Source: a virus
Taxonomy: Duplodnaviria; Caudoviricetes
Direction: 5' to 3' (one strand)
Length of the DNA stretch: 64,000 nt
IMG/VR virus record: IMGVR_UViG_3300002220_000322
Coordinates: 1-64,000 of that record
Both the position numbers and the translations under genes were made by a program. Under the pieces are notes generated by a model that had not been told where the DNA came from, ran no database searches, and saw only the letters and a list, made by a program, of their open reading frames with translations. Below, one piece after another: positions 17,860-49,113 of this stretch. Each line of letters starts with the position of its first letter. Position 1 is the stretch's first letter.

Positions 17860-19740
17860 ATGAAAGTTAATATAAATAAATATAATACAGGTGGTCCTTT
17901 TCATAGGGCCACCTTTATTCCTGCTGCTATGTTACCTGAAGATTCAGTTGGAGCAACTACAACAGGGGACTCTGATAAAAAATCAGGAAAAGGATTAGTG
18001 GAAGATGATTTATTAGAAAAATTAGTAGGTAATGGTCTTACTAGCGACGTTAATATGTTAGTAAAGGAATTATCCAAACAAGATATGAATAGTATATTAT
18101 CTCCAGGAGGTACTAATAAGGTATTACAACTTATAGGAAAAGTAAATGAGATAAAAAACAATAAAGAGATGTGAAACGAGGCTATAACACAGTCTAAGGC
18201 TAATGGTTCTTTTTCAGAAGTAGCAGTTTCTTCTGAAGGAGCTGTTTTTTATAAAAACTCAGAAGGAACTATAGGAGCTACAGATATAAATTCTTATACT
18301 AAGAATCCTAAAAAATATGGAGGACTGTTAACAGTATCTGACTTACTTTTAGAAAGACAAAGAAATAACGGATTGGCTTTTGACACCAAAATATTTAATA
18401 TAGCTACTGCTTCTATAGGAATGGAAAAAGTAGTAGACTATGTATCTACTTTAGTTAAAAATATAGGTATGGATACTAGAGAGTTTACAGATACTTACTC
18501 AAAACAACAACTATTAGAAAAACAAAAGCAAACTCTCTCCCAACTAACAGGTAAAGTTCCTAGTAATTCCGAAATACAGGCTCTACATTCTCTACAAGAG
18601 GCCTTTGACACTCCAGGAGATTATACTGAAATATATACTAAAATAGCAACAGGGGAAGGTAAATTTGGAACAGCTATGAATTATATATGAAATAGTATGG
18701 ATCCAAGATTTAAAAATAAAGTGATAGTTACTGCCGCTGTTAATGGTGTAGAAAATCCTAAACAATTTATGCTAGAAATGATGGTGGCTAATAATGCCTC
18801 TACTATGACTACTAAAATTTCCCCAATTAAAGAAAATTCATTAACAGATGTGGACAATACAGATACTACAAAATCCTTAACTAATTATCAAATGTTTCAT
18901 AAAGATAAGTTAAGAAACCCAGATATGAGCTTTGTGTTTAATGATCCTAAATTACAGGTTTTATTTAGGGGAGCTGTAGGAGGAGTAGGACCAGTAATAA
19001 CTCCAAAAGGAGAAACTGTAACTATGACTACTCTAGGAAATGTACTGAGTACTGGAATAGAACAGGTGTTAAAAGTAGGGGAAATATATTTTGGAAATAA
19101 AAAAGTTCCCAGAGAAGAAATTAATTCTATTATATATGATGGAGCAGATGCAGCTAAGGTATATATGCCAGTAAATAACCTAGGAGGACCAGACTATGAA
19201 TCTTTTAAAGAATTTAAAGAGGTATATAGTATATACGAAGCCAATAAAAATCAACTAACCACTCAGGATATAAAGGAATTGTTTGATTCTCATGGATTTA
19301 AGGTAGATGTTGAGGAGACCATAGAAAATGGAAAAATAGAGAAAGTATTAAAAGAAAATGAATATGTTAAACCATTTTATATTTTATATGGTTATACTAA
19401 TGACGCTACCTCTTTAATAGGGAAAGATAATGAAAATTTTGTAACTAAATTATCTAGAGATGAGAAGAAAGCTATAGTTCCTCAATTAGAGCAAATTTGA
19501 ACTGTAGGTACTGGAAAAAATAAAGTAAATATGACCCCCTCTAAATTCTGAAATATAGAAGATTATTATAAAGGAATGATAGCTATTCCTTATAGAAAAG
19601 AACATGCCGCAATAGTAGATGGTCAAGTAGGGCAAGGACCAAGAGAAAAAGTATCAACCATATTAGATGTCCAAAGAAATATCAGACATTCTTCACAGCC
19701 TGCCACAGGAACTACTAGGGCTATACAGTTAACAAATTAA
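17860..19740 (+). CDS. Cargo/ejection protein, 626 aa (4 TGA=Trp)
   Basis: Single frame from ATG 17860 to TAA 19738-19740. N-terminal NKYNTGG motif; no Cys. Confidence 0.65.
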
Positions 19741-19744: not shown

Positions 19745-22700
19745 ATGAAAATAACGAAACCAAATGATATATTAGTAGCTACTATTAATAATCCTAATTC
19801 CTCTACATACGATTTGATGTCTATAGGATTAACTCCGGAAAATACATCTTTTTTTCCAGATAAAGATACTTATAAAAGTAGCAATTATATAAAAGATATA
19901 TTTAAAACAGAAGATGGTAAATTTGACGATGTTTCCTTTGATAATTTCTATAATTTAGCTTCGTATCACTATCAAAATATGAGTGATGAGGTATACCTCA
20001 AATCTTTAGATGAAGTAGAATATAGTCCTTTTGATATAACAAGACCTAAAGAGGCTAAAACTTTTAAGGTAGGTGTAAAATTTGAAAAAGAAATAAATCC
20101 ATTTAGACAGTTATATAGTAGAACAGGTATAAATAGTATAGACGAAAGCCCTTTTTCTTTAAGAGAAATTGCTCAGCAGGAAAAAATATATGATCCTGAT
20201 ACTGATACTTGGTCTGATAAATCAGCTAATGATATTTCGCTACTTAAAAAATTATTTGGGGAAACTTTAGTATACGCCCAGTGGGATGAAGACGGTACTC
20301 ATGTAGATCCATCTTCCCAGAGGGTTATAAAACATAAAAAGGGAGATTGAAAAGTAAACGACAGGGGTAATTTATATATAGAGAAATTAGCTGGGAGGGA
20401 AGTATATGGAAAACAAATAGTAAATCCCATGGATTTATTAACTACAGATGGGTCTGTTTTAAATCAGTTAGATTTTTTTGATTCAGATAGTAAAGATAAA
20501 TCTATAACCAAAACTGCCTTTAAAGTAGCTTTTGATATTGCTCCCTTCTTAGTGCCGGCATCTCTTCCTTTCTTAGGAGCCTTAAAAATTCCACAGGTTT
20601 ATGGAGGAATAAAGGCTGCTGTTGGACTAGCCGCAGTTATGCCTACCTTTTTTAAGTCTTTAGATGGGATTTTAGAAAATAATAATACTGGAGGAATAGC
20701 TAATTCCTTCACAGCAGCAGAGGGGTATATGTCTAAATTTACTACTTCTTCTATTTCAGATAGGGGCCAAAAATCATTATTTACCTATGAACAAATGAGT
20801 CAAATGGTAGGAGATATATTTTCTCAAATTTATGAACAAAGAGCAGCTGCAAGTTTATCTAAATTAATTACTAGAAATAAAGAATTAAAGTTTTCCGATA
20901 AACATAAAGAACTCATTACAAAAATAAATGATGGCATTATAAAAGACGTTATGGCAGGGAAAATAGGCTGAGATAAAGCTTCGGAAGTAGCTAATATAGC
21001 TAAAAGTAAAATTCCAGAACTGGCTGATTTTTATAATGCCAGATCTAATTTATCTAGATCTTTTTCTTTGGGTTATATGGCCTTAACTTCTACCGGACAA
21101 ATATATGGAGAAGCTTTGGATGCAGGTTATGATAGGAGAGTAGCTGGTTTTGCTTCATTAGCAGCTGCTGCGGGACAATATGGTATTATGATGAATAATG
21201 CTATGGGCACTTGATTCTTAGATGAAAGTACTGGATATACTACTTCAAGTAATAGAGCCATGATATCAAAAAGTATAAAGGGGTACCTTGATGATATACA
21301 AGAACATATGAAAGCTATACCTACAAATCCAGGTAAAGCTAAAGGAGGACTTGCTACTACTTTTAGAAATATAAAAAATAAAATGTATGATATATTCACC
21401 TCTCCTTCTGAGTTACAAAATGCTATGGTTAAGAATGCTTTTGTTGAGGGGGTTGAGGAAGTAACAGAACAAATGGTATTAGATGCTACAAAAGGAGTAT
21501 TTGATACGATGTCCTACCTAGGACTTATTAAACAAAAAGGTAGCTTTGGAGGATTTTCAAATGCCTTTAGTAGAGAAGGATTAGAAGAATATGTAGCTAA
21601 CTTTGTTGGGGGTTTATTAGGCGGGGCCATGTTTGAATTTAATAGAAGAAAAATAGAACCTTGAGTTTCTGGAGAAGCTTTGCCACCAGACACTAAAAGA
21701 TCTGTATATCAACTAGTTGCTAATGGGCAAACTGAGGCTCTTATAGAAGAAGTTAAAAAACAAAAAAATAAATTAGGAAATAATTATATATCTGCATTAA
21801 GTAATAATGATCTTCCTACAGAAGCTGCTCCTGGACAATCTCAAGCAGACTTAATAGCAGACATGGCTATATCTATGATAAGAAATATAGATGGGACTAT
21901 GAAAGCTAAGGGACTTGCTGTATCAGACGAAGATATAGTAAGACATGCAATGATAGATCATTTAATTATACAAGACTTAGAAAATTCTAAAGGAGACTCT
22001 TCAATAGGAATAGAAGGTATAATAGTGGATGATTTTAGAAACGCAGCTTCTGAGATATTAAGAATAGAATCTGATATAAAAAGACTATCAGAAAATAAGG
22101 AAAAAGAAGAGGAGAATAAAGAAGAAATAAAAAGGCTTAAAGAGCAATCTAAACTACTTGAGAAAAGAATAGAGGATATAAAAGAAGGAAAATTAGCAGA
22201 GGATTATTTTACACAAATGTTATTTTATTTATCTAAAGATATTAGTGAACATTGACTTAATATAGATAAAGAAACATACACTAAAATAAAATATGAAAAA
22301 GAATATAATGATTTAGAAGCTAAAGGCCTAGGTATAACTAAAGAAGTTATAGACAAAGAGTGACAAAACTACATAGACTCAAAAGACTTAAGAAAAAGTA
22401 TAGAAGTCGCTACTAAGGCTTATCTAGCTTTAGAGAAAGAAATGAATCCTTCTATAGCTAAATATATAGATTCAGGTTATATAGAAGAGCGTAAAAAAAC
22501 TATCTCTAATTTAGTAGATAATTTAAAAACTCTAAAGTTATTTGACGTATCAACAAAAGAGTCTAGAGATAATACTATAACCCACTATATACGCACTGCT
22601 AAAGAGGTAGAATCACTAACAGGTAAGAGAATAATACCTTGGGAAGTTATAAATACAGATGTAGCAGATAAAATTATACAGGAAGAACTATTATCCTCAG

Positions 22701-25700
22701 TAGATTCTAAAACTGGGGCAAGGAGTAGCGTAAATATAAAATATTTAGAAGAAGAAGTTAAAGTAGGAGAAGATACTATTAAAAGAAGGGACATTATAAA
22801 AAATATTTTAAATCTAACATTATCAAGTCTTCCTCCCGAATCTTTAGTATATGATATGATTGTGGATAGATTTAACAATAATGTATTAAACTATAATTCT
22901 CAATTAGATAGACAAATTTCAGAATTAGAAAGTAAAATAACTTCTTCAAATTCTACAGAATTACAAACTCAAATTTTAGAACTAGAGAATAGAAAAATAG
23001 AGGTAACTTTAGAAACTTATGAAGATTCTAGCTTTAGACAAAGGCAAATATTTGAAACGGATGGTAATTTAATAGCCAAACAAAATGAATTACAAATAAG
23101 CCAAGAAGAAATTGATATAATAACAAATTCTACTAAAGAAGAACTATCCTCTATTATGACTTCTTATTCAGAGATTTTATCTGACTATGCTAATAAAAAT
23201 AATATACCTAATGTAGAATCTTTATCAGAAGAACAAAAAATAGAAGCTTTATCAGGAGTAATAGCCTTATATAACGCAGTTAATAGAAATAATTTAATTT
23301 CTAATATACTAGAATCAGAAAATGATGATAAATTCTCAGAAGTAGAAAAAATAATCAATGATTTTATTGATAGGCTAATAAATATTCAACCAAAAGTGGA
23401 AGAATATAATGATTTTAAAAATAATATACTCTCCACTTTAAAAAAGCCAGATTTATTTAATGTAAATAATTATGCAATAGAGGCAGTAATAAAAGAAATT
23501 AAACAGTCTAAAAACTTAGATAGAGAGTTATTTTTAGAAATTCAAAAAATGTTTTCCTCTTTAGTTTCTGGTATAAAAAATAAATATCTAAAAGAAATAT
23601 ATTTTACTGATGAGGACATCTTCAATTTATTGGAAAATATAGAAGAAATTTATCCTAATATAGCAGAATATGTAGATAGTATAGTTAATGAGGATGAGTA
23701 TGAAGAAATAATGCCTTCGTATATAAGAGAGGCTTTACATAAAAGTCCAGACTTAGAATCTGCAGCTTTAAGATTAGAGCAAGCAAGTACTACATTATTA
23801 GAATTAAAACGAAATAATGATAAAACTTTAAATAAGTTAGTAGAACTAAAAGAAATAATCTCTAATTCAGATAATTTTATTTCTAATACAATATATGATT
23901 TTTTAGAGAATTTTGAATTATCTTTGGAAGGAAATGAAAGTATAGATAAAAATACAGTATTTTCTGTCCTAAAACAAGAAGAACTTTCATTATTTAATTC
24001 CTCTGACATAACTAATTATATAGCAGAGGGATTAAGAGACCAGCACATACAACAAGCTATTAATACTTTGAAAATGGCTAAATCGGTTGTTTTTGGCATG
24101 CAGACTACTAGTATTGATTTAGGAGATCCTTATGGATTTATAGCCTCCAGACAATCTTTTGTTAAAAATAATAAGTTAGATTCTGATATTAAGTCTTTAA
24201 AGACTATAAGTTCTGATAGTGCAACAGTTATGTTGTCTGATTTACAAAGAATAGAAAGCAAACTAACTTTCCTAAAAGAGTTAGCTAAAGATAATTCTGG
24301 TAAAATTTTTGTAGAACAAGAGATAACTAGAAGTAGAGTAAATGAATTATCTTTAAAAGAGTGGGAAAGGCTTGTAAAGGTTGGTCTAGAAATAAATGGA
24401 AAGTCTTTTCTTCCAAATATAGAAGATATTTTATCTTCTAAAGATTCAGTTGATAAAAAACTTCTTAAAATTGAAGAGTCCCTCTTTGAAAGATATAAAG
24501 ATAGCACCCTAGAAGAAAAACTAGAAGTAGTAAGGGAGCTTATTAAGGAATATAAGTATGTAAATTCTGTAGATACTTTGTATAAGGTAGACGGAAGTGA
24601 TAGAATTTCTAAAGAGATGAAAGAACTTAATAAAAATGATTTTTTATTAGGTCTGATTTCTAATATAGTAATAAATTCTAGAGACTTTAATAATAGATTA
24701 CTAAATATACTTAATGGTACTTTTAATAAATCCCCATTTTTTACTCAAGAGTTAGCTGCTAAAATTGCATATGCTTCTATAGTAAATCCAGAACTATTCT
24801 CCGAAGTAGCTAAAGAAAATAAATACCTTGGAGCTCAGGTAACTGACTATATTACTTATGTGCTTGGAGATGCAGGAACTGGGAAAACTACTGTAATATT
24901 TAAGACATTATTGATGATGCTACAGAATAACAATCCTAATATGAGTGTTTGATTTGCAGCTCCACATAAAGAGCAAGCGTCTAAATTACATAAGGAAATA
25001 TTAGAAGAGTTGGACATAGCTACTCTAGATGTAAAAAATTCTTTTGATAAAAATGAATTATTTGAAAGATTGGGTATAAAAGAAATACTTAATCAAATTA
25101 ACGAAGAAAATAGTGATTTGATAACTGAGGAACAAAATAATCTTACTTTACATTTAGATAAAGTAACATTTAAAATACCTACAGATTTACCTAATATAAT
25201 CTTTGTAGATGAAATCACTCACTTTACTGCCATAGAATTAGCCGTAATGAATGAGTTAACTAAGAGGGCTAGGATATCAAATGGAGATATTCCTGGAATT
25301 AATATGAGAATATTAGGAGCAGGTGATCCCACACAAAATGGAGCTATTTATTCTAAAAATAATAATCTATTTTATAATGTAGATTGGGCATCAGGAATAT
25401 TTACTCCCCAACTTAATATAACTGTTAGAGCTTTAAATTCCCAACAGAGAACAAATAATGATTATTTATCAGCATTAACAAAAAAAGCTATAGCTAATTA
25501 TTCTACTAGTAAGGATATTCCTGTAGTAATGAATATAATAGGCAGCGGAGTTACTTTAACAAACCATATTTCTAATAATAAATTAAATGGTACATTAGTA
25601 GTAGAAACAGAAACTTTACCAGAAAATATTATAGGAGTCTTAAAAAATATTATATCTGATAATCCAAATGCAAAAATAGGTATACTAAATAATTCTTTAG

Positions 25701-28636: not shown

Positions 28637-28642
28637 TTAATT

Positions 28643-31600
28643 ATGATATGTAGTGTAGAAAACCAAATAAAAATATACAACAGATTAAAGTTAATTAGGC
28701 CTAGAAATAAAGAGACTGTAGTAGAAATACTACAGTCTTTTGTACCTAATTATACTATAGAACAAGCTGTGAGAGAATTTGATAAAGTTCCAAAAGAATA
28801 TTTATTAAATGTACTTAAAGCAGTAGGTTACAATCCAAAAACAGATTCTCAGGTAATAAAAGAAGATAAAAAAGTAAATAACATAAATACAATTTTTACT
28901 TCGTCTTTTATTCCTAATTTATTTGAAACCCTACATGTAGCAGAAAGTTACTTTGAACAACAAGCTAAAGAACTTATAACAATAGCTACTAAAATAGGAT
29001 ATGGAGATAAATATGTAAGTTCTAATGTAGAACTAAATAACAATATTAAAATATTAAAAAACGATCTATTTGAAAAAATAGTTAGATTTTTAAGAAATAG
29101 GGGAGTAAAATTAGACTATGATAAATATTTTAAAGATGATATATTTCTAGAAAGTGCTAAATTATACTCAGGAAACGTTTTTAATAATTATGATTTATAT
29201 AAGGAGGTCTTAAAAACTTTAGAACATTATCTGCTTGGAGATAATAACCAAAAAGCTATATTGTCATCTAGAGGAGCTTATATTCCTAATATAAAAGGAG
29301 ATATCAGAAAAGCATTAGATAGACAAGTATTTGATGCTTACAATGCTGCCATAATATTATCTAATTTTGATAATATAATGGAAAAGTATTTTGGTAATTC
29401 TATTTCTTTAGATTACTCTGCTTATAATAATTTTGTAGATCCAACAAATAATAGTTTTAAAGGGAAATATCAAATAAAAGAAAGTGGAGAAAAAGTTCCC
29501 TATTGGTTACAGGATTCCCATGCCCAAGAAAATGTAGAAACTATAGAGGATGAACTTAGTTCCAATATTATTAATATTATCAAACACATTAACAAGCAGG
29601 GAGAAGAAACTGGTATTTATTTAAGTACTAATGATTTTTATAGTTTGGGGTCTTATATTAGAGAGTTTGAAAAAGAGAACTTAATTACTATACTTAATAA
29701 TAAAAGTAATGGTCTAGAAAGGTATAAAGACTGGGAACCTCTGGAAAATAATCCAGTTAAAATGCTAGGATGATATCTAGAGAATATAATAGAAGCCTAT
29801 AATCAAGATTTTAAATATGATTTAAATGCAGCTTTAGGTAAACATTTTTTACATAGAGTGGACATAGTTAAATCTATAAACAATTTTTTAACTTCTGTAA
29901 AAACTAAGGAAGAAAATTCAGGGTTTTATTTAACTAGAATACTTGGTCATAAACTTATAAATACTTATGGAGCTAATTACTCTGTATACAATATAAATAA
30001 TCATAAACTTATTTCACAGGAGATGCATTCTCATAATTCCAATAAGGTAGATTTAAATAATACTACATATAGACATTTATTAAACAATGTTTCTCAGCCA
30101 AATAAGTTTTGAATTAAGGTATCTCCTAAAGAAAATATGACTGATAGAGAGTTAAATACTCTATTAAAAGAAGAATTAGAAAGTATAAAAGAAATAATCT
30201 CCACTGATTCTGGATTATCTGATATAATATTTAAGAGTTTAGGGATTTTTATAGGTAAACATGGAGCGGCACAATTAAGAAATAAATTAGGAGAGAAGAC
30301 CGCCACCACAATACAAGATATTTTATCAGAAATTAGAAGTAAAAAAGCGATAGATGATGAATCTATTCCTAGAAGTATATTAGATAGAATTATAGAAAAT
30401 GAGAAAAATATAGACGATGAAAATTATGGAGAGGTCTTAATACCTAGTGATGTAATATCTCCATTAGTTAGAAAAATCCAGGATATTCAAGACATTTATT
30501 TAGATAATTTTATCTTAAGACCTATAATGAATATATCTACATTAAGTGGAGAACAAATACCAACTTATAAAATTCCAAATTTAATGTATAGTGATACCCA
30601 GGTATTACTAGATAGATATGAGATAGAACAAGAAAAAGAGACTAATTTTACTTCTTTATTCTTAAAAGATAATATTTTGTTGGGAACTTCTACTGGACTA
30701 GAAGCAATAAATAAAAACAAGAATAAATCGGTAAGTAAATTTAATGTATTAGAAAGTTTTACTTATAATTTTGAATATTCCTTCTTAAATGCTTTTAAAC
30801 CTACTAAAGAACAACCATCAGGAATACATGTGCTTATGGGTAATTACTCAGACAAAAGTACTATAATGTCTAAAGTAATAAGTTTAGGGGCTGTAAATAA
30901 AGAAGGAAAATATATAATAGGAAGTCATACTGGAGAAAATATTGCAACTATCGAGGAAGTAAAAGAACTATTTAGAACTCAGTCTTTAGATTTTTATACG
31001 GACACTTTAAATAATATATTTGAAAATTATAAAAAAATTGGAGTTAAAATAGATTCTAATGTAGATTCTAATATAAAGAATATAAATATCTTTCTAAAAC
31101 AATTTAAAGACAGAAGTTCTTTTTTAAAATTTGTACACGGAAAAGCAATATTAGACCCAACTATAGAGATAGTTTCAGAATTAAGTTATTCTATTTATTT
31201 AGAAAATAAGAAAGCTAGACTAGCTATGAACCAAGCTATAGTGGATAACTATAGAATATTTAAAAGTAAAGATAGATTTAATGATTTTGTAAAAAGAGAG
31301 GAAGAGTCTCTTATTAGTAAACTAAAAGAAGAATTGGGATCAGAAAATGGAGTATCCTTTTTATTTACAGAAGATAAATTATTTAACATAGAGAAGTCTA
31401 TAAATAAAGATTATAGTGGAGAAGGATCTCCAGTAATTAATCACTGATTGTCTTCTTTAGGAATAACTAAAACAAACTATAAGCCATTTATAACAGAAAA
31501 AGGACATAAAGTATCTTTAAATAATAATAGGATAAACCCATTATTAGAAAGGTGAATGTGGGTAAGTAATTTATTTAAACACGAGTATTTAGCTCTTACC

Positions 31601-34600
31601 GTTAAAATGGAATATATGCATCCAGCTAAAAAAATAGTATATAGAGGAGATTCCTTGGAGGTTGATGTGGAAGCTCTAGACAATGAAAATAGGATAAGAA
31701 TACCTCAAATGTCTAAGAGAAATGTATCCTTTACCGCAACATATGAAATACCTACAAAACATACAAGAGAGGGAGCTCCAGATAAGGTAAATATAGCTGT
31801 TATAGAAGATTATTCTTCTCCTTTATATAATTTGTCTGGAGTTACTACTAACGCTAAAGTACATGATGGAAGTTCCTATATATCATATGTATATTCTAGA
31901 ATGATAGAGTCTTCTTATCCTGGAAAATCGTATAAAGGTACAAAGAAAAGAATAGGTACTTTTATTAAAGAATCGTCTAGTGCTCTTAAAAAAGACGCAG
32001 AAACAGTTATAACAAACTGAAAAATTAGAAACTCAAATAAATCTGTTATAAGGTTTGAACTTAAACAGAAACAAATGCTTTCTGCAATAAATTTACCTAA
32101 TTTTTCTAGAACTTTACATAAATTACCGACTAGTGGGATTTATTATAAAGATGGGGAGTATTTTAGAATAAATGAATATTCAATAAATAATGGTTTAATG
32201 GAAGTAAATTTATCTAAATATAATAACCTTACTAAAAAATTTGAATCTTTAGGTAAGATGCCTCCACAAAAAATAAATACTTTGTATGATATATGAAAAA
32301 TATTTGGAGGAGAATATTCAGCGGACCTAGATAAAAATGGATTTACTTTTACAGAAGGATCTAATGATCTATTATTTGATTTAATTACCTCGGTTAATAC
32401 CGACGGAAATTATTTCTTAAAAAATAATATGATACATATAATATCTAATGAGACTTCCTTTAAATCAGGATCTACAAATGTAAACCCTAGTAGCCATTGG
32501 TATGATTCTAAAATAGAAAAGCTATCTTATTCTACTTATAAAGGGTCTTATTTAGGACCTCAGTTAGATGCAAACCATGATATAAATGAATCTCATATAA
32601 AGGAAATTACTCAGATAATTTCAGCCTTATCACAAAATCCTAAATCTGCTCCTATAGCTAATGAAATATATAATGATATAGCCAGAATAATAAGAGAGTC
32701 TGCTAAACCGTATCTAAGTAAAATTACAAACTTAGATAACGAGAAAATGGAAAGTTATTATAAAACTTTATCTAGAAATTTTGCTTATGCTTTAGCAGGC
32801 TCTAATAACACAGGGCTAGCTAAAACTATAGCAGAGTCTTTTGGACAAGGGTCAGTATTACCTTTTAGTCACCAAAGTTTATTTAAAGATTTTACCAGGG
32901 ATTTAATAACTAAGATGAACAATGAATTCATTACTAGATATTATCCAGGAATTGGAGTAGTATTAAATCCCTCTCATGGAATAATACAAGTATATGAAGA
33001 CATAAATGGTAACATAATGTCACATAATGATATTATAAAGAGGGCTATACAATGATATAATGCTCTACCCCAAAAACAACCTTTGTCAACTGAGCAGATT
33101 ATTGATTTATATACAGAGCAAACTTTTCCTCCGCAAGAAATTACCCTAGCAGAAGTAAACTTAGGAGATATTATAGAAATTGAGGGGAGAATTGAAAACT
33201 TAAATGATATAGAGTTATATTATAATATTAAATTTAATTCTAATTTACCGTTAGGAACTTTAGTTAAAAAAATATACAATGTTCCTAGGGATTTAAAGCC
33301 AGCAGAAATAACATTTACATATAATGGAATAAAAAGTAATGTTTTTGATTTACCATCCGTTAAATTAAAGTATGCATTAGAAAAAGGAGAATCTAATATA
33401 AATTTAGATAGATTAGCTAACTATTGAGGAATAGCCAGAGATAATGATTTTGTAAAAAACATGGCTTTAAAACTAACTGCATGGACACAACGAAATTTAG
33501 ATTTATTAGATGAATCTTTTGTTATTGCTACTGTTGTAGATGAGCAGGGGAATATAATTCCTGAAGAAACTTTTATACCAGAAGATAATTTAGTAACTAC
33601 TCCATTTTCAGAGGTTAAAGATATATATATAAAAAGTAAGGCAGTCCCAGTAACAGACTATGTATTTAAACCTGCAGAACTTATAATGGGAAATATGTAT
33701 AAAAACATATTTAATACTGAGGAGGATAGTATAGATATTATTAAGAATACAGTAAACGATAGGGGAGAAAACATATATTTTAAAAATAAACTTGATAATA
33801 TATATATAGAAGACAATAAAGAGGCAGACTTTAAGTTAATTTTATCTGAAGGAGATAAACCTGTATATATTAAATATGTTAAGGAATATCCAGCAGCTAT
33901 TAAGGAAAATAATAGCATCTTTGTTCCCCATTATGACGATAATACAGGAGAATTAAATACTTATAGAGTTAGTAATAATGGCACTCCTTTATATAAAAAA
34001 TTACCGGAGTCTAAAATTATAAGCCATGATGGTTACGATATAGTTTATATTAAAATAGGTAAAAATATAAAAGTTGATGCAGAAACTAAAACATTATTAT
34101 CTAATAACTTTAGTAGTGATATTAGGGAATTTTTAAAATCTTTTAAAGGGAAAATTAAGGCTATTATACCATTAATGAACGGAAGTAATGAGTTAACTAC
34201 TAACCTAGTTAAGAACACTAAAAATGGGTTAGTTCCATCAAATTCTAATGAAATTACTTTTAATATATTTAAAAAATTCAGCGGGTATAATTCTAAAGAT
34301 AATAAGTTATCTAAAGATTGATTTAAAAATAATAAAGAGGCTATTATAACTCAGTTAGGAAATAAAATGTTGGCTTCATGAGAAAAATCTCTTGAAGTAG
34401 TATCAGCACGTATTCCTGCTCAGTCTATGCAATCATTTATGGAAATGAAAAACATATCCTATTTTGATACGGATACTAATGATGCTTTTGTTTCTGTTTG
34501 ACAAATTTGATTACAAGGCAGTGACTTTAAATAAATATTGGAGTCACTATAATAAATCTCGTTAACTGCGGGAAACTCCTTAGAGCTTTTGCTACGAACT

Positions 34601-37600
34601 TAAGATAGAGATATACTTAAGGGTTATAATTAACTATTATAAATATCGTAAAAAGGTAAAAGATTGGACAATCCGCAACCAAGCGTCCTAGATAAAATTA
34701 TTTAAAGTTTAGACTATTAAATTGACAAAATTTTATTAATTTTATATAATAGGATGAAGGCTCATCGACTATCCCGGAAGGGAGTAGAGACTTCATTTAG
34801 TATTAATTTATTAAATGAATAATTATGTATAAAAGAAAAATTACAAAAAAGTTAAATTTAAATCAAAAACAACTATTAATAGGGTTGTTAATTGGAGATG
34901 GAACAATTTCATCAAATTATGTTTTTAAACTTTCTCATGGAGAAAATCAAAAAGAATATTTAGAATGGAAAATACAACTATTAAACAAACTAAATATAAA
35001 AAATAATGGATTAAAAACATATATATCAAATTCTGGATACAATGAAGGTAAATTAGTATTATATTCACAAATATCATTAAATGCAACAATAAAAGCATTA
35101 AGAAGATCAATTTATACACCTAAGAAAAAAATAACTAGGAAATTATTAAATTGGTTAAATGAACAAGGATTAGCAATTTGATATATGGATGATGGGCATA
35201 TTAATGTAAATACATCTCAACAAAGATCTTCTATTCAACATACAATTAAAATAGCTACTTGTGTAGATTTTGATACAATAAATGAAATAATAAAATATTT
35301 TTCAGAAAGATGGGATATAAAATTTAGACCTTTTAAAGAAGGTAATAATACTTATTCTATTGCTTCTAGTTCAGAAGAAGATTGTGAAAAATTTTGTAAA
35401 ATTATAAAACCGTATATTAATCAAGTACCTAGTTTATTATATAAAATTAGAAAAAATTTAACTAAAGAAGAATTTTTAGAATTACAAATTAAAGGTCTCG
35501 AAATGCGAGACATTATATATTAATTTATATAATGAAGATATAGTCAGTCTTTATATGAAAGTATAAAGGTTTAACGGATATAGATAAATCTTATATAATG
35601 GCCCACGGATTTAATAAAAATGGACAATATGATTTTTGAAGTGATATATTAGAATATAACACACGTAAACAATTAGATGCTTTAGAAAGATTACCAATAC
35701 CTCAAGACAGCCAAATAAATATTTCTGCTGATGGTATTGATGTAACTAATTTTATATTAGAATTATCTAAAGAAATATCAGGAATAGAAGAAAATTATAA
35801 TTTAAGTCCAGAAAATATCAATATTTTAGGTAAATTATTGAGAACTATAAATAGTTCTCCGATTAAAATAAACACTAATTTAATTTCTGAAGAAGATATA
35901 GATAAAGTACTTACTTTAGTAAATAAATATAATAAAGATAATAGTTATTTACGAAAAGAAGGAGCTATAAAAAACTCTATTGTGTCTAAAATTAGACAGA
36001 TTATATCTTTACCAAGTAATCAATTATTAGCTACAGAGCCCGTAGATGTTAAACCCTTAGCAGATGCAGGAGATAGGGCTAAAGAAATTATAGGATTCAG
36101 TGAGCCTAGATTTTCTAGTTGAGATATGATAACTTCCTATAAACAACAAGAAGATGCTTCTATAGGTAAAGGAGATGTTGGTATAGGGGCTAATGGATTA
36201 AAAGTATTCTTTGCATTAAGTAATTATTATAATAATTATTATACTAAAGAAGTTAACTTTGAAAAAGACATACTCATAAGTCCTAAAAGCTTTTTAAAAG
36301 AATTTACTATTAACGGAAAAACTAGGGTGATAACTAGTATAGCTAATGTAGATATTCCCACAAAATTTTTAGAGGATACTTTAAATATATATGGATATAA
36401 TAATCTTAATAAAGAACTTACAAAACTAAGTACAGAAAAAGCAGCAATTAATGCCTCGGCTTTCCTTACTGGGGCTACAGACAATGCTAAAGAATTAGTA
36501 ATGGCCAAAATAAATGCAACGCTAGAATTAGCCTCTATGCATATGTATTTAATATCTTTGGGTTATAGTATTGAAGATGTTTCTATATACATGAATTCTG
36601 ATTTAGCCAGGTATGTATCTAAACAAGCTACTGGTAATATCTTTAAAAACACTGATGAAATATTTGTTCCAAGTATAATAGATGCATATAAAATAGTAAA
36701 TACTAATATTAGTCAATCTGAAATAGATCAGTTTAAAGATATATATTATGGGGCTCAGGAGTTTAGAGTATTAGCCTCTATATTAAAAGTAAATCAAAAG
36801 GCTTCTGCTAATATACCTGAATTGAATAAATTTCTTTCAAAATTTGAAGGGGCTGTTTATAGCAGAGAACATAAAGTACTAAATAAACATTTAATAAAAC
36901 TGAGAAATCCAGATTTATGAAAAATTAAAATAAATGGAGGAAAAGATATAATTGATATGATTATAGATGATAACCCCCTACTTAGTAAACATCCTGATGC
37001 TAGAAAATATGTGGAAGAAGTTTTATTAAGAGCTTCTAATATAAAAGTTAATTATATAGACGAGAATGGTTTTACTAATTCTAAAAGAGTAAGTTTAATA
37101 GGAGGTCAGTTTGATTTTAGATATTATATACACTTAGAAAACTCTAATTATAGAGCCGCTGCCATAGAATATTATAATTTATTTAAAAATACTATAAATA
37201 TATTTGATGTAATAGAAAATTCTCCACATTTTAGAGAAATGGTTAATGGGGTAGGAATTATACATAATGTAATGTCTACTTATTCTAAGAAATATAATAT
37301 GGCCTTTAATAAAGTAAGAGATCTTGTTAGATTAGAGGGTACTAGAATAGTAACTAATAATAAAGAAGTTAAACACTTATTTGGAAATTCAGCGTTACCT
37401 ATAAAAATATCTGATATAGTTTTAGCCCGATCTTTCAGAGCTATAGAAAATTTCATAGTGTCTGGTTGATTTAAGTCTGGGAAGAGAGTATCTGATTTTA
37501 GATTTAACCCTAAAAATTTATTATCTTTGGCAGGAATACCAAAACTAACCTTTTATTTAAATGATAATATTAAATATTATTCAATAGGAGAAATTAAGGG

Positions 37601-38411
37601 ACTGAAAAATATAGACGATATAAAGAATAACATAATAGAAATAACTCCAACCCAAGAAGAGGATTTTATTATAGATTTAACTACTGACTACGGAATAGCT
37701 AATTTTAAGATATTTATGGAAGAAGTAGTATTAAAGATACTACAACAATCTAAAGCCAATAATATATTAGAATTATTAAGATTAAGTTCTGTTAAAAATT
37801 CTATGGGGCTAATATCTACGCAGATAGTTCCGTCTTTTAATATAAGTAGTTTAAATTCTCCAATTAATATGGAAAAGTTTCAAGCATTACTTACTTCCTT
37901 TAATGAAATAGATTCCACAGTTGAAAACGGTTTAAAAATAAAAAATTCTGAAAATAAAGTAATTTCTTATAAAGATTTGTTTTATGTATATAATTTAGTA
38001 GTAAATAATGAAATGTATGGAGATAAACGGTTAACTCCTTTATTTGACGATTATATTAAACACGAAGATTCTTTAGGGAGAGAGTATTTAGATTTTGTAA
38101 GTAGTGTAGATTCTAATAGAGTTAATATATTTGAAATACCAGAATTAGGAACAGATACAGAGGCAATAAACTTAAGAAATCAACTATATTCTAATCAAAT
38201 AGATGATATTTTATTTATGCTATTTCATAATAGAGGAGCCTTAAATATAGATAAAGTTAATTATAAAATTGAATTGAAAAATGCAAATTTTATATTAAAT
38301 ACCTATATGGAAGAAAGAGGCAGAAAAGACACGGCTCCTTATATAGCACTAAATGCTATACTGTCTATTCTAAATAATAAAAACTTAATAGTAAACTTCA
38401 ATTGCGATTAA
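28643..38411 (+). CDS. Virion RNA polymerase, spliced join(28643..34528,35577..38411), about 2906 aa (16 TGA=Trp)
   Basis: Exon 1 ends ARIPAQSMQS...LQGSDF and exon 2 begins DIDKSY. Splicing restores GSDFDIDK, the DxDxD catalytic loop of crAss/phi14:2-type vRNAP. Also contains HDG and ATDNAKE motifs. Confidence 0.88.
34722..34750 (+). promoter_or_regulatory. Putative sigma70-type promoter inside intron, upstream of the endonuclease
   Basis: Perfect TTGACA-17 nt-TATAAT, about 75 nt before ATG 34825. The AT-rich background weakens significance. Confidence 0.45.
34825..35523 (+). CDS. Intron-encoded LAGLIDADG homing endonuclease, 232 aa (TGA=Trp at 35179)
   Basis: Two motifs, LLIGLLIGDG and GLAI(W)YMDDG (LAGLIDADG_2 type). 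Lies between the R and S elements (P8 loop). Confidence 0.9.
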
Positions 38412-38412
38412 T

Positions 38413-41400
38413 ATGGCATGTTATTATTATATAAAGTTGCCAAATGGTGGCGAGGTAAAAATCCTCGCTACCATTTCAACTATAACAAGTAAAGATGGTA
38501 AATTATATGAGGACTTTAATAAACAAATACAAAGTCATTATAGAGATCCAGAAAATAGTACTTTTATAGATTTTTTAAAAGAACAAAACCTAAATCTACA
38601 TGTAAATACTTTAAAAAGTATAATAGAAAACTCTAATAAAGATACTTTTTTAAATAATCTTAATGATAAAATTACAACTCAGTTAGGAACACAAGATTTA
38701 TCAAGTGCTTTAAAAAGATCTCTATGAGATAAAAATAAGAAAATAGAATATATAAATAATCAAGGAAGATCAAAGAATATAAGTTTAGGAGAATTTTTAA
38801 ATAAAATAAAATTTCCAATATCTAAAAAATATTTTGAAGGAATAAGTCCTACTAATTTAATAGGAATAAAAAGACTGAGCCAAATAAAACAAGATTTAGA
38901 TATATCTATATCAGAATTAAATTCTATAGGAATGGACTCTTCTTTAGTAGAGTCTTTAAAAAATATATTAAATAAGACTTTTTACCAAAAAGATAGGACA
39001 CAAGATATATTCTATAATATAAACTTTGATTCAGAAGTAAATGATTCTTTAGTAGTTTTACCAGAAGAAAGTAACTCCCCTATTATATTTTATAATGGAA
39101 TGAATGACATGTCTCTTTTTATGGGAACATTTAAATATCTTGGAACTAAATTATCTATTGAGGAGTTAGTAAATATTATAAATGATTATAATAAGGAACT
39201 AATAAATAAAGAAGGTAAGGAAAGTAAAAATATAATAGATACTAATAATTTAACAGTTAATGATTTTTTTATAGGTAGTTTTAAAGAAACTAATAAAGGA
39301 ATTGAGTTTAATGATCCTGAAATAAATAAAGTATTTAGATTCAAAAAAAATGCAGAAACTACTATAAACTCTATTATATCTTTAATTTCTTCTAAAATAT
39401 CTGATTCTGAAACAAATATAAAAAAATTAGAAAAAGACTTCAAACGCTTATTTAAATTTATAGATCCAGATAAATATGGTAAAGGGGTAGATTCTATTGA
39501 ACAAAGTATAATAAATAATTATGATATAGAACAAAAGGAAAATAAGCAACTTACTAATGAAATAAAAGCAAAGGATATATTAAGTTATATAAGTATAAAA
39601 AATAGAGATTATCATTACTCTAGGCCAATAGTCAAAAAGGGACTAGATAATGAAGAAGATATGTATACATATCTATTAAATAATGTATCTAAGAATAGAG
39701 ACTTACTATCTGTAACTATATTAAATAAAAATAAGTCTGTTTTTAATAAATTACTAGTACCTACAGAATTTCATATAATTTCTGGAGGAATAAGAGTAGT
39801 AGGATTCTATGAATCTGGTGGGGAGATTGTTTGAGAAAAAAGAGGATTTATATTTTTAAATAAAGGAGAAAGTGAAATATCTCATAGGCAACTCTTAGAG
39901 GAAAATCCTATAATATATACTACAAATGCTGAAGAACTATCAAGTGATAATTCTATAGTAATAATATCCCCAGAAGACGATTTTTTACCAAAAGAATTAG
40001 TAGCAGAGGCTTCAGTTAGAGGAGGAAGAATAGTTTTTAGTACAGAAAAAAGTCCAAATAAAGAAATAAGTTCAGTAATTAGGGGAGTATATCCAGGAGT
40101 TATAAAAGGAAATTCTATAAGAACAAAAGCCGGATCCTTGGAAGAAATATCAATATCTACGGAGAGAGTTAAAAGACTTAAGACTGATAAAAGTTTATTT
40201 GAAGACGAATTTACAGAAGGGGAAATAGATAGAATGTCTTTTCTAAGATCTTTGGATACTATAATTCCTACTAGAGACTTTATACCAGTAGAAAAGGGAG
40301 ATTATATAGAAACCACAGTAGAGAGAAATGATAAAAAAAGTAAATTATATAATAAAATAGTAGCAACTTCTGATAAGGATGTTTATATATTAATTAAAAC
40401 TTCTAAGGGAAATTATTCTGTAAAGCCTATAAATAAAAACTTAATATCTAAAATCTTTAAAAAGCCCATATCATTAGATATAGGTATAGTAAAAAAAGTA
40501 GGAAGTTTTCATAGAAAGGTTATAAATGATAAATCTATTTCTAAGGATAAGTTTTCTGCCATAGATTCTTATGAAGCGGCCAAGAAGGACGATTATTTAG
40601 TTAGTTATAGTAACGGAATTTATACTATATATAAAATAACTAATAAAGAAAATAGAGAAGGTATAGAAATTATATTAAAAAATGATGTAGAAATATCAAA
40701 AAAGTATTCTAGATTACCCGAAGAACTAAATAATTATTTTATAGTAACTAACAGAAATATATACTCAGAACATGCTATAGATATAGCTGAAAAAAATAAT
40801 ATATTTTTAACAACTGAAGTTAAGCAGGAAGAAAGTATAGAATATATACCTATACAGTATTTTGTGCCAAAAGATTATAAAATAGAGGATTTAACTATAT
40901 TAGGATCTGGAATTTCTTTAGAGGGTAAAATATATATGCCTAATATTAGTGATCCTATAGACGAGAAAATATATAAAGACATAACTAAAGATTTGGCTAA
41001 GTACTTAAATGAAAAAAGAAAGATAAAAGGAGAAGATAAATTATATATAAAGTCTAGAAATAATTATTATCTTAGATATAATGCCTCTTTGTATCAAACA
41101 GATTTTACTACTGACACTTCTTTTAAAGAGAAATATCTAAAAGAACATTCATTTGTTACTCTGAAAAATCCTAATAATCCAGATAAATCAGGATCTAAAA
41201 CATATAGAATTATAGGAAGGTCTGATACTATATTGACTTTAGAATATGCAGTTTTTAATGACGAAGGTAAGCTTCTATCTATACAAAAGAAGCTTGATTT
41301 ATCTAAAGAAGAAGATAAAAATAGCATTAAATGACTATATGTAATGAAAGGAAGCATTAGTCATAAGGAAATGACTGCTAGAATAAAAGAAAAAGAGTTA

Positions 41401-42090
41401 TCTAGCCAACCAAAAACTAAGGAAGTCATAAAAGAGAGAAAAGAACTTTTATCTTCTATCTCTCAGCAATTTATGAATATATTTAAAGTACCTTCTACAA
41501 TAGTGTCTAATATAGGAAAGCCTGAATTATCTAAGAAAAAAGCATGAATTCAAGCAAGTACAGATAATAAACCTATAATTTACCTTAATTTTGATAATAA
41601 AAACACAGACGAACATGATGTAGTACATGAATACTTGCATTTATTCTTAATGCCCCTAAAGTATAAAGAATTAGGAACTGGAGAGATAAATCTATACGAG
41701 GATTTAATGTTAAAATATAAAGAAAGTTATAAAGATAAAAAAGAAGGCAAAGACAAAGACTTTATATTAAACTCAAATGATTGGTCTAAGATAGAAGAAT
41801 ATTTTGTAAGAGATGTATCTAAAGCTATAGTAGAGGGAGGAATAGAAGGAGTTATAGATTACGGAACTTTTGTAAAGGCGTTTAATGAATCTTTATACTC
41901 TCTTGGTATAGAAGATTTATCTATAGATACTACTAATTTAGTATCATTATTAACTACTAGAATGTCTGAGATATTTAAAGGTACTAAAAGTAAATTAGCA
42001 AAAAGCGAATTAATATTATTTGATGCTAATTTTAGAGAGTGACTATCTAATAATCTTTCTAATGGAAAGTTAAAAATAAATTGCGAATAA
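38413..42090 (+). CDS. Giant virion protein with C-terminal zincin-like metallopeptidase motif, 1225 aa (5 TGA=Trp)
   Basis: Single frame. KA(W)IQ...IIYLN...VVHEYLH (HExxH at 41626-41640), with downstream EEYFV as candidate third ligand. Starts MAC, ends INCE. Confidence 0.72.
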
Positions 42091-42091
42091 T

Positions 42092-45000
42092 ATGGCATGT
42101 GAATATGAAATAGCCGGAGTTAAAAATAGTTTAAATTTTGGAGAAGTAATAAAATATTATTATAAATCTACTGGGTTACTCGCTAATACTAATATATTTA
42201 GTAGTGAGGAAATAGTAGCCAGTGTTTATAGTAGAATACAAAAACAATTAGATAAACAAAATTTAAAACAAGAAGTATCAGATGATAAAGAAGTATTATC
42301 TAAGGGCAAAGGTAAGGTGGCTGTATTAGATTATATTACAAGTCAAAATAATACTGATGTATATAAAAAAATAGGGTTAGATAAAGATAGACTAGTACCA
42401 GAATATAATAAGGATAATTATATATTAAATGAGACTAAAAGAAGGATAAGACAGGATGGTTTTCCTGCTCCTGAAAAAGACTCTTTAAAAGATATTTTGG
42501 AAAAATATCCACAGGCTTCTAAATATGTATCTGAAATAGAAGAAGAAATATTTATAGGAGAACAAACTAAGAATCTAAGTTTAGGTATCCATAATATACT
42601 AGCTAGGATATTTAGAGAAGAAGGAGAAGTTAGTGATTATACCAGAGGAATGCTTCGTAAATTAATAATAGACAATCAAGATTATTTACATGGAGATATT
42701 GATTTATGAGTAGATAAATTTATTTCTATATTTGATAATTTATATGAAAAGATAACTGCCAAAGGAGAGAGAGTATTAACTGAAGTAGTATTAGAATCAG
42801 AAGAAGCTGCCCTAGCCCAAGTAAGGGGTAAAATAGATATACTAACCATTGATAGTTCTGGAAGAACTCATATATATGATATAAAACTATCAAAAGACCT
42901 ATATGAAGATTGAAGCTCAGAAAGAATTTTACAAACTGATTATCAATTAGCTTTTTATAGAGCATTATTAGGACAATATGTAAAAACTGACGATGCAACT
43001 CTAAATATAATACCTATTAGATTAGGAGGACTAAATGCAGATAAAAAAATAGATGTAAATAATCTAGTATTGGATAAGATAGTAGATAGACTTTCACAAG
43101 AGGGGGGTAAAGGATTATTAGTAACAGGAAGGATTTATAAAACAGCTAGATTATTAATACCCAGTACTACTGAACTATTTTATGATCCAGAAAAGATAGA
43201 AGAAGTTAAATCAGATCTATCTCTTATATTTAAAGACTATAATATAAAAACCTCTGGAAGTGATTATGATGTAGAAACTTTGCTGGATAAAGCAGTAAAG
43301 CAACAAGGAATAACTATGTTTCTAGAAGGATTTGAAGATCCTAGAGCACATATAAGAAATAATAGATTATTTATAGATCATAAAGTAGGGGATAGATATA
43401 AGACGGAAGAAGAATTAAGGATAGAATATAGACCTATAATAGAAAAGTATGTAGCCTTTGCAAAAATGTCAGAAAACAATAATGTATCTCAGTTAATGCA
43501 AAAAATAATATCTTCTATTGATAAAAATGGGGAAACAATACAGATGATGAATCCAAGAGATCAAATTATAGTAAATAATATAGCTCATCAATATATAAAT
43601 GGAGATTATGATGTAGTCAGAGGTTCAGATGAGTTAGTTTCTTTAGGTATTATATTATTAAGAAATAAAAAATATGGATCCTATGTACTATTAAATATAT
43701 CTTCCCATAATCAAAAGGATAATTATGATAATAAATGGTTATATAGAGATGTAGATTTTATAAAAGCAATGGCTTTTTTAAATAGATACCATAAAGACCT
43801 AGACTTAGATTTTAATAAAGTACAAGACATAATAACTTATAATCCTTTAGAAAACCAAATATTTTATAAACACCTAGAGTCTGGTTTTAGAGAATTTGAT
43901 GTTCTTATGAAAGAACATGGCCTAACTTTAAATTTAAAAAATTCACATATATTGCCAGCAGAAAAGAAAGCTTCTATAGAAATTAGGGAAGCGCAAAGAT
44001 ATATATCTAATAAATTGTCAGAGGGAGACAAGGCTTCACTAAAATCAATACTTGATAAATATTCTGAGCAAATAGAAGACTTGACAGTAGAAAGACTGAA
44101 AAATATGGTTAAAGATTTTATAAAAGCTTTTCCTAATTTAGAAAAAAAATCTTTTGAGTCAGGATTTGACTTTAATAATCATATAGAATATCTATTCGGA
44201 ATGATTAATACACTACTTCTAATAAAAGCTGAACAAATTCCTATGGGAGATTATACTGGATTAAATAATTTTAATATTAATTTTTCAAGTATATATGATA
44301 TATTTTCTGGCTTCTTTAAGAATACTAGAGAATACGACGCAAAAGAAAAAAGAATATTATCTTTTATGGATGGTTTAAAAATGGCTACCCCAGATAGAAT
44401 AGGATCTAAAGATTTACAGAATATAAATATAATGTTATCTGGTACTAACTCTTTTATTAGACAAAGTTTTTATAAACAATCTACTATCATATCTGGACTA
44501 ACCAGGAAATATTATGATTCTATAAACTATACTAATTGAGAACAAAACTGAGTAGGAGATCATAGAACAAAGTTTCAAAATATGTGATTTAAAACTAGTA
44601 ATGGCAACATTTCTATGGAATGGAGAACTAAAAATCCATATTCAGATTCTTTGGAGGATAGTATGACTGAATCGGAAAAAGAATATTTAAAAGGTATTCT
44701 CTTTGAAATGAATAAAAGAAAGTTAAATATTCCTAAATCAGAGTTAGATAAAGCAAATATAACTACTCTGGAAAGCATGGAAAAAACTATGCCAAGTACT
44801 TATCAGAAAATAGTTAAAATGATTGCTGATAAGACATATTTTAAAATGCCCTTAGTTAGATCTCAACAAATAGGAAGACATACTTCAGTAATAAGAAAGG
44901 GATATGCTCATGCTGTTGATGTTTATAAACAAGAAATGTATAATTCAATAGACTCAAGAGAATTAGAATCTGATGAAATAAGGAGTCTAAAAGAAAGATT

Positions 45001-46735
45001 GGGATATTATGAAATGTATAATATTTATGATAGACAGACAGATAAGTTTAAAGAAGAGGCTATAGAAACCAAAGGGATAGATTATTTTGAGTTAGATTTA
45101 GACGCTATAAGTCATAGACTTACTTTTAATCAAATAAGAAAAGCTCATTTAGACAACATTCTTCCTGTTATAAATGCTTATACGTGATGGATGAAAGTAC
45201 AATCTGGAAAAGCAGGGGAGGATATATCAAAAGAGCTAGAACATGTAAAAAATAGAATAAAATTAGCTGCAGCAGATGAGTCTATAATAGACCCAGAAGC
45301 AGAAGATGTAGTACAGGCAGCTACGGTTGTTAAAAAAATAACTACTGCTGGTATGTTGGCTTTTAGACCAGCTCTATTTTTAAAAGAGATGACTATAGGA
45401 CTTTATAAGGGATCTATGCTAGCATTTACTAAAATATACGGAGGAGAAGAACAATTTACTATATCAGATTTAGGAAAAGCATTAGGAAAACTAGCAACTA
45501 TAGATAAAAAATTTGCTAGAGAATGAAATATGATTGATGGAATAAATAATGAATATGGTTTTGCGAATAGAGACGTAAACTCCTTAGCCCCAAGACTTCA
45601 AAGTAATAGAAGGGGTCTACATATGGGCTTAGGTCCGTGAATGTATATTATGAATACTGTTCCAGATTATTATAATAGATTAGCATTGCTTTTAGCTAAA
45701 ATGATACATGATGGTTCTTATGATGCTCATGGATTAGACAAAGACGGATATTTGACTTATGATCCTAAGAAAGATAAAAGATTTTCTTATTATTTTGAAG
45801 TTAGAGATAAGTATAAAGCTGAAGAAGGAAGTGTTGTTAAGTATAAGTCTTCTAATGCAGATAAATTATATAATAAACAAAAAAGCTTATATAATCTCCT
45901 AACAGACCAACTAAACTCTGAAAGAATAAGAATGGGATATGAAAAGTTTAGTGAAGGAGATATTGTAGATAAAGCTTATTCTGAATTAGAAAGATCAAGT
46001 TATAAATCTTTTGTAGACGGTGTTTATGGATATTATGATGTGGATTCTCAATCTGAAATACATAAAACATGGTATGGAATTTTATATTTACAATTTTTAC
46101 AATTCTGGCCAGGTAAAATGAATATGTGATTTGCTAGCTCTAAGAAGAAGGGAGTAACTCCTACCGGAAGATTTGAACAAATGAGTAAAGAAATTGATGG
46201 GAAAAAAGTTTTACTTTGAAGAAGAGAAGTTATAGACGAGGAAACTGGAAAAATTACTGGTTTTGAAATTACTGAAGAAGATACTGGAGACCCTGCATAT
46301 GAATGAGTAGGTACACCGCAAGAAGGATTGGCTATTGCCCTAATGATGACAGCTAAAGATATAGTCACTTTTAATTGAAGTAACATAAAATCTGATGATT
46401 TAAGAACTAGAAGAGCTTTATATGGACTTTCTGATGGCTTATTAATGCTTATATTTTTTGCTATTATTTCTAATTTATTGAAAGCATATAGAGAAGAAAA
46501 TGGGGATGATGGTATAGACGGAGAAACTATAAGATTTATAGATGCTGTCAATGATAAAATATTAAATGAAGCTAATATTTTAGATAATACTTTTGGGGCA
46601 CTAAGATCTAAACCTGCTTTTTGAACTTATAGTACCAGAGTAGCTGGTAATGTAATAGATGTAATAGAGGGAGACAGAACAGCAAAACAAGCTTTAGCTA
46701 AAAATATAAGAGCATTTGAATTTTTAGAAGAATAA
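42092..46735 (+). CDS. Giant virion protein with N-terminal PD-(D/E)xK nuclease domain and C-terminal hydrophobic helix, 1547 aa (13 TGA=Trp)
   Basis: Single frame to TAA 46733. LGIH...TE...RGKIDIL...IYDIK...YQLAFY lies in a stretch missed by the ORF track. Also E(W)VGTPQEG and GLLMLIFFAIISNLL. Starts MAC. Confidence 0.72.
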
Positions 46736-46787
46736 AAAAAAATAGGGGAGCCCCAGCATATAGCCGAGACTCCCCATTTTTGTTTAT
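46734..46787. terminator. Probable bidirectional terminator between the convergent late and early blocks
   Basis: A tract, then a GGGGAG...CTCCCC imperfect hairpin, then a T tract, between two converging stop codons. Confidence 0.7.
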
Positions 46788-48079: not shown

Positions 48080-48333
48080 TACATATATTTTTCGAGGATT
48101 CTAACAATAGCGGCTTTTACTTTATATCCATAAAAATCTTCTTTCTTTTCTCCGTCTACCTCAATAATTACATAAGGTACAGCCTTAATTCCAGGATTTA
48201 ACTCTGGATTTTTTTCTATATCTATTTTTTCAACAACAACATTTTCATATTCTTGTTCTATCTCTTTAAGCACTGAGGCTAAGTTTTTACATGGGGCGCA
48301 CCATGTAGTATAATAGTCAATGATTTTTATCAT
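48079..48333 (-). CDS. trx: Thioredoxin
   Basis: WCAPC active site and a cis-Pro-type AVP motif; 84 aa. Confidence 0.9.
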   Translation of the reverse strand: MIKIIDYYTTWCAPCKNLASVLKEIEQEYENVVVEKIDIEKNPELNPGIKAVPYVIIEVDGEKKEDFYGYKVKAAIVRILEKYM

Positions 48334-49010: not shown

Positions 49011-49065
49011 TTTTATTCATTTTAAAGAAGTATTTTTTTAGTAATGGATTATATTAACTTTATAT

Positions 49066-49112: not shown

Positions 49113-49113
49113 A

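Follow-up and report, generated by a model that had tools for sequence, protein, structure and literature searches.

Paired terminal cysteines at the facing ends of giant crassvirus cargo proteins and their possible role as a head-to-tail tether

Crassviruses are the most abundant human gut phages, and it is an open question how, and in which order, polymerase-associated protein amounting to roughly a megadalton is loaded and ejected through a channel of less than 50 Å (PMC10172136, PMC13434306). The ejection order of crAss001 was left to packing and unspecified interactions (PMC10172136), and crassvirus ejection was called unresolved in a 2026 paper (PMC13434306). The locus described here raises this question for four separately encoded giant proteins, P1 to P4 (Table 1), in which cysteines are found at the ends where neighbors face each other and nowhere else.

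The window analyzed (28% GC) covers the first 64 kb of a phage genome assembled as one contig of 102,859 bases. Several studies of hydrocarbon and wastewater environments contain its DNA in their metagenomes, and no RNA data set was among those listed as carrying the window sequence. A frame scan of the window yielded long frames in the plus-strand block only when TGA was read through. In-frame TGA codons number 95 vs. 43 TGG in this block, and 10 vs. 97 in the minus-strand block. In alignments to homologues, TGA stands opposite Trp 98 times and never opposite Cys, so that the read-through assumed in the original prediction is upheld with TGA as Trp, while an assignment of TGA to Cys was rejected. 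Consequently, no cysteine is hidden in the four proteins. No tRNA genes were detected in the 64-kb window.

Table 1. Features of the cargo region, given as positions in the window
Feature	Position	Strand	Remarks
Muzzle gene	7017-11351	+	PF25731 crAss_MUZ, E 3e-24
Cys-free gene, probable cargo	13458-17858	+	1466 aa; position of crAss001 cargo proteins
Cys-free gene, probable cargo	17860-19740	+	626 aa; position of crAss001 cargo proteins
P1	19745-28636	+	2963 aa; first chain member; code 4
P2 (virion RNA polymerase)	28643-34528 joined to 35577-38411	+	2906 aa spliced; code 4
Group I-type intron	34529-35576	+	1048 nt; interrupts catalytic motif
LAGLIDADG homing endonuclease	34825-35523	+	232 aa; PF03161 E 3e-24; phrog_11023
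P3	38413-42090	+	1225 aa; code 4
P4	42092-46735	+	1547 aa; last chain member; code 4

The locus represents the RNA-polymerase cargo block of a crassvirus in which TGA is recoded. The muzzle gene and a polymerase with a DFDID motif place the phage among crAss-like phages. The cargo genes lie downstream of the muzzle gene and close the structural block, and the strand of the genes changes after position 46735. In described crassviruses, giant virion proteins are likewise encoded downstream of the muzzle and cargo genes, with a central DFDxD polymerase as well as zincin and PD-(D/E)XK domains, and some phages have them as fusions (10.1101/2020.03.07.982082). Residues 1701-1922 of P1 form an SF1-type helicase domain (AAA_30), P3 has a zincin HExxH motif (aa 1072-1076), and a PD-(D/E)XK nuclease domain (PF12705) was detected on P4 homologues. 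The nine invariant columns of the P3 alignment include both of its cysteines and the zincin residues H, E, H, and E. PHROGs assigned no family to any of the four proteins, and fold searches with the P3 model returned only weak partial matches (Spt5 KOW/Tudor-like and SprT-like, TM 0.1 or less). Pairwise BLAST of the window proteins against phi14:2 and crAss001 gave no useful match; the connection runs solely via intermediates, such as locus L047.

Cargo proteins of phi14:2 and crAss001 were found in virions by mass spectrometry, and in crAss001 the virion proteins gp47, gp49, and gp50 have to unfold in part to get through constrictions of under 50 Å (PMC10172136). Judging from these cultured relatives, in which P3 has no separate orthologue, the four giant proteins of the window are most likely packed in the virion and injected. 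The two genes directly upstream of P1 are probable counterparts of crAss001 cargo proteins 1 and 2, as suggested by their position downstream of the muzzle gene rather than by their sequence. Since they lack terminal cysteines, they are considered to lie outside the chain.

The polymerase gene is interrupted by an intron. The 5' exon ends in U and the intron in G, and exon 1 stops within the catalytic motif. Splicing restores DFDID (DFDxD type) and yields a protein that matches six intron-less relatives, which share this motif, residue for residue at the joint, in support of the splice originally drawn from the sequence. The intron-encoded endonuclease contains three cysteines and is not a chain member. 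An Rfam search gave no match to the intron at the gathering score, a related-locus search with a single polymerase exon returned no matches, and the intron-less joint was not clearly seen in DNA contigs from other runs covering the region.

Together, P1 to P4 comprise 8,641 aa and contain six cysteines, one per facing end. The sole cysteine of P1 is residue 2962 (codon 28628-28630), those of P2 are residues 3 (28649-28651, exon 1) and 2905 of 2906 (38403-38405, exon 2), those of P3 are residues 3 (38419-38421) and 1224 (42082-42084), and that of P4 is residue 3 (42098-42100). The first member has no N-terminal and the last no C-terminal cysteine, while the middle two have both, which confirms all six positions and the linear-chain topology of the original prediction. 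At a frequency of 0.865%, about 75 cysteines would be expected in 8,641 aa, and six or fewer have a probability of ~1e-24; random placement would put one cysteine within five residues of each of the six facing ends with P ~3e-17.

The same arrangement was found in relatives. Twenty-six genomes from Steigviridae, Intestiviridae, Suoliviridae, Crevaviridae, Flavobacterium phage Fpv1, and unclassified relatives, with chains of two to five members, hold 41 junctions. Cysteine is present on 82/82 facing ends vs. 1/50 outer ends, counts which exceed the number of independent events as the genomes share ancestry. The chance background is 1-2% per end. The N-terminus of the first member carries cysteine in none of 24 genomes. 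Throughout the P1 family, 72 of 73 proteins have a cysteine within the last 15 residues and none within the first 10; conversely, 38 of 39 full-length P4 family members have one within the first 10 residues and two within the last 15. All four inner ends examined in 25 four-member loci carry it, and even a P3 of only 288 aa in a relative keeps both. For chains with inverted genes, the order was set by homology to phi14:2. For crAss002 and PQ006092, the start was set at an in-frame ATG further downstream than the annotated or first one, as the cysteine rule indicates.

Named residue pairs are available in cultured phages. The phi14:2 proteins gp67-gp66-gp65 (GenBank tags gp078-gp077-gp076; gp66 corresponds to PDB 6VR4) contain four cysteines in 5398 aa, all of them at facing ends: C1797 of gp078 faces C3 of gp077, and C2179 of gp077 faces C3 of gp076. 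In crAss001, gp47 C2339 faces gp50 C5, and gp50 C2404 faces gp49 C5. The expected conservation of terminal cysteines in facing pairs was thus borne out. It had also been argued that common internal cysteines in homologues would speak against a link. On average these are rare (0.11% across the 26 genomes), with the opposite seen in a cr272_1 protein of 6386 aa that contains 38. Many internal cysteines are tolerated in some lineages.

A few outer ends do carry a cysteine, namely in the last protein of locus L094, at the C-termini of proteins P0040 and P0041, and in gp47 of p-crAssphage, where it has no partner. A related-locus search using P0040 returned no matches. Another apparent counter-example, P0048, was rejected as a TGA recoding miscall, an annotation error exposed by the cysteine rule itself. 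Outside the group, N4 gp50-52 and phi13:2 gp124-127 contain no cysteine anywhere, and the pattern is therefore not general to ejected proteins.

In relatives with a fusion of P1 to the polymerase (Suoliviridae, Fpv1, and cr108_1), the start of the chain lacks cysteine and a single pair is left on the facing ends. Where the polymerase and P4 are fused (p-crAssphage, crAss002, cr127_1, and ctbg_1), the end of the chain lacks cysteine and again one pair is left, and fusion of the polymerase to the zincin protein (L041, L045-L053, and L061) shortens the chain by one member. Splits have the reverse effect: P1 of MT835492 is divided in two, giving a fifth member with its own new cysteine pair, and the split polymerase of L041 likewise acquired a new pair that includes a cysteine at the new start. 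This new start is similar in sequence to the N-terminal end of the last chain member in Suoliviridae (33% identity, E 7e-9; profile E 5e-8). The rule thus holds through five kinds of rearrangement (three fusion types, the P1 split, and the polymerase split), and the fusions respect the chain order. All cysteines are also retained in crAss001, DAC15, cr116_1, and PQ006092, in which P1 is encoded on the opposite strand. The co-variation anticipated for fused and separate neighbors was therefore observed, and together with retention across strands it indicates that selection acts at the protein level and favors linkage between different neighbors. A link of some kind is, in our estimate, very probable.

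The anatomy of the ends suggests how neighbors might contact each other. The C-termini of P2 and P3 are predicted to consist of a helix and, after it, an alternating hydrophobic strand with the cysteine at its end, and the N-termini of P3 and P4 start with Cys-x-Tyr-x-hydrophobic. Cysteine is the sole invariant residue in alignments of the P2 C-terminus and the P3 N-terminus. In a single-chain model of a P3 homologue, residues 5-19 form a hairpin and the C-terminal tail is unpaired; similarly, the modeled polymerase leaves its last 10 residues unpaired (pLDDT below 50). Conserved hydrophobic strands that find no partner within their own chain would hint at docking on the neighbor, in alignments that are shallow (24-26 rows; 19-25 rows for paired ends). 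As the P1 C-terminus is unconserved apart from its cysteine, a folded lock-and-key interface is doubtful at P1/P2. A profile of the P4 N-terminus matched 45 cluster representatives; each match falls within residues 1-56, and each of these proteins has the cysteine. Proteins at different chain positions in different families share homologous N-terminal modules, and the module is seen at protein starts only. None of the solved structures displays a cargo junction.

From these patterns we infer a docking step, a disulfide with a place and time of formation, and a role in ejection. The proteins would be tied head to tail in the fixed order P1, polymerase, P3, and P4, with each C-terminal tail docking onto the small N-terminal module of the next protein. 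At P2/P3 and P3/P4, a hydrophobic strand would most likely be added to a beta-hairpin, and at P1/P2 a variable, mostly helical end would dock; the two terminal cysteines would then form an interchain disulfide. Such a link could stand in for gene fusion: the set would be packed in equal numbers and drawn through the tail channel as a single unfolded thread, and reduction in the cytoplasm of the host could cleave the link. We regard it as reasonably probable that a head-to-tail disulfide tether replaces gene fusion in this way, with joint packing of the set, threading in a defined order, and reductive release. It is proposed, with slightly better than even confidence, that two to five separate giant cargo proteins (~5,000-9,000 residues) form a reversible disulfide-linked thread via portable terminal modules, in which the first protein draws the polymerase and the remaining members through the tail in set order until host reduction releases them, an order-wide, redox-cleavable substitute for a polyprotein. 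Interchain disulfides are present in the crAss001 virion tail (PMC10172136), and the same study recorded virion mass spectra with and without reduction, from an excised band. The phi14:2 polymerase gp66 was purified alone in DTT and was active in this form in transcription assays (10.1101/2020.03.07.982082), and the link is therefore not needed for catalysis.

The comparative data would fit equally well if the same neighbors were paired for another job or at another time, i.e., by non-covalent docking during assembly or in rebuilding a transcription complex after entry, with a disulfide that only stabilizes the contact or forms in the periplasm and an ejection order independent of it. Virions are assembled in the reducing cytoplasm and many of the hosts are anaerobes, which counts against an early bond, and the conserved hydrophobic patterns at the ends are as expected for docking. 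However, the cysteine is kept at the variable P1 end and in proteins otherwise purged of cysteine, which suggests that a covalent bond was selected, and the strictly linear end-to-end topology fits threading better than a globular complex. We therefore judge this alternative possible but rather unlikely. Less probable still is a metal ion (Zn or Fe) bridged by the paired cysteines of neighbors, possibly with a second chain copy supplying the rest. Such a bridge would be workable in a reducing cytoplasm and would give the same co-variation, but there is one cysteine per end, with no CxxC, and neither a conserved His nor a second conserved Cys was found near the four ends examined in 25 loci; it is also doubtful that a metal clamp would hold up while the proteins are unfolded and pulled. 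A CxxC metal hook of the Rad50 type was rejected on the same grounds.

Each terminal cysteine might instead act alone, in closing its own protein into a ring, in pairing the same ends of two copies, as a site of modification (lipid, thioester, or splicing), or as an anchor to a shared structural protein. The middle proteins do carry a cysteine at both ends and a few unpaired outer cysteines occur. Nevertheless, this leaves unexplained why the first N-terminus (0/24 genomes and 0/73 homologues) and the last C-terminus are devoid of cysteine, and why sets of two members carry just a single N-terminal and a single C-terminal cysteine, these being on different proteins. In addition, the P3 model does not appear to pair its own ends, no signal peptide precedes the N-terminal cysteine, and both the residue preceding the C-terminal cysteine and its distance to the end vary, unlike in intein junctions. 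These functions are accordingly considered improbable, and a split intein or trans-splicing was rejected, as a Pfam search revealed no Hint domain, the residue before the C-terminal cysteine varies, and a His is absent. A by-product of a DNA or RNA junction motif, such as one for translational coupling, or plain chance has a negligible probability. Stops and starts in the window are indeed only 1-6 nt apart, in AT-rich sequence. However, TGT and TGC are both in use (83:17), the facing codons are 7 to 280 nt apart across relatives, the feature is absent from other junctions of the same operon, and in crAss001 and DAC15 the pair is kept although the genes lie on opposite strands, thousands of bases apart. 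Non-adjacent genes, both codons, and variable spacing exclude a nucleic-acid motif.

The terminal-cysteine rule is a real, order-wide, and apparently undescribed feature of crassviruses. No description of a terminal-cysteine link was found in the literature searched, which mostly did not include subscription papers, and cargo cysteines are unmentioned in the crassvirus literature examined. What appears to be new is the linking principle, while the proteins themselves are known. If the disulfide tether proves true, it would answer the question of ejection order with named residue pairs in cultured phages and would explain the free fusion and splitting of cargo genes in a constant order.

The closest known system is the Crassvirales cargo block itself (phi14:2 gp67-gp66-gp65; crAss001 gp47, gp50, and gp49), which has the same terminal cysteines. 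The window differs from it in having four members, a separate zincin protein P3, TGA as Trp, and an intron. Schitoviridae (N4 gp50-52 and DEV gp71-73) resemble crassviruses in their giant ejected virion RNA polymerase and in cysteine depletion, which has been attributed to passage through the periplasm (PMC11445570), and the N4-type polymerase fold is unrelated to that of crassviruses (PMC13434306). In contrast to the window proteins, N4 gp50-52 are free of cysteine up to and including their termini, and the DFDxD-type enzyme and the terminal cysteines rule out an N4-like ejection operon for the window locus. In AB-type proteins, two chains are held together by a single disulfide while they cross the membrane, and the bond is reduced once translocation has brought them to the cytosol. 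These two chains are usually cleaved from one precursor, whereas crassviruses would link two to five separately encoded proteins in series, a functional analogy without homology. In chaperone-usher pili, each subunit contributes a terminal strand to the sheet of its neighbor, resulting in an ordered linear polymer. Pilins, however, have an Ig fold, donate an N-terminal strand, and are not linked covalently, while the strand proposed by analogy for crassviruses would be C-terminal and secured by a disulfide.

Use of the TGA codon differs across the window. In the late plus-strand block (4684-46735), tryptophan is encoded by 95 TGA versus 43 TGG codons, whereas TGA is hardly used for tryptophan in the early minus-strand block (47468-64000; 10 TGA versus 97 TGG), where most of the 10 TGA codons fall within two genes (62851-63663 and 66853-67731). 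No tRNA genes were found within the 64-kb window.

Three further genes without cysteine occupy the interval between the muzzle gene and the cargo genes, and a hairpin that looks like a two-way terminator follows the gene of the fourth giant protein, P4 (see table).

Cysteine-free genes upstream of the cargo genes and the hairpin downstream of P4
Feature	Position	Remarks
Cys-free gene, 394 aa	within 11344-13388	no family
Cys-free DUF192 protein, 192 aa	within 11344-13388	
Cys-free Gln/Gly/Ala-rich protein, 91 aa	within 11344-13388	start similar to starts of both cargo genes
GC-rich hairpin, A run and T run on flanks	46745-46780	directly after P4; convergence point of both transcription directions

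Among the relatives, the cargo-1-like gp47 of p-crAssphage (L008:5588-8161) carries its sole cysteine at the penultimate position, and the protein that follows it has no N-terminal cysteine; the terminal cysteine of gp47 is unpaired and lies outside the chain. Starts of the Met-x-Cys type were located 32 codons downstream of the annotated start of crAss002 gp33 (L010:17088-17184) and 18 codons downstream of that in PQ006092 (L090:15801-15855), and both annotated starts are probably placed too far upstream. Several GTDB genomes with unrelated names (Allosphingosinicella, Clostridium, Sphaerochaeta; loci L091-L098) contain crAss-like contigs of ~100 kb, and one 15-kb crAss-like contig of this set is filed under Micrarchaeota; these are probably mis-binned phage contigs.

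In the model of a homologue (L073:1268-4591) of the third giant protein, P3 (38413-42090), small beta domains are abundant in the middle part, and the top matches of a fold search were Spt5 KOW and Tudor repeats, all of them weak (TM-scores ≤0.1). Should this modelled likeness hold, P3 might assist the polymerase in the manner of a transcription factor, which we regard as a lead only.

The polymerase gene itself is interrupted within or immediately beside its catalytic motif in many of the relatives (L004, L020, L025, L038, L041, L050, L076, and L090), and the insert of L004 bears a LAGLIDADG motif and occupies a position identical to that of the insert in the window. The catalytic-motif region of this gene is a common homing target. 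In crAss001 (L003:18434-29724), it is gp50 that bears the DFDxD motif and shows similarity to the crystallised RNA polymerase phi14:2 gp66, whereas an earlier report described the crystallised protein as homologous to gp49 (PMC10172136).
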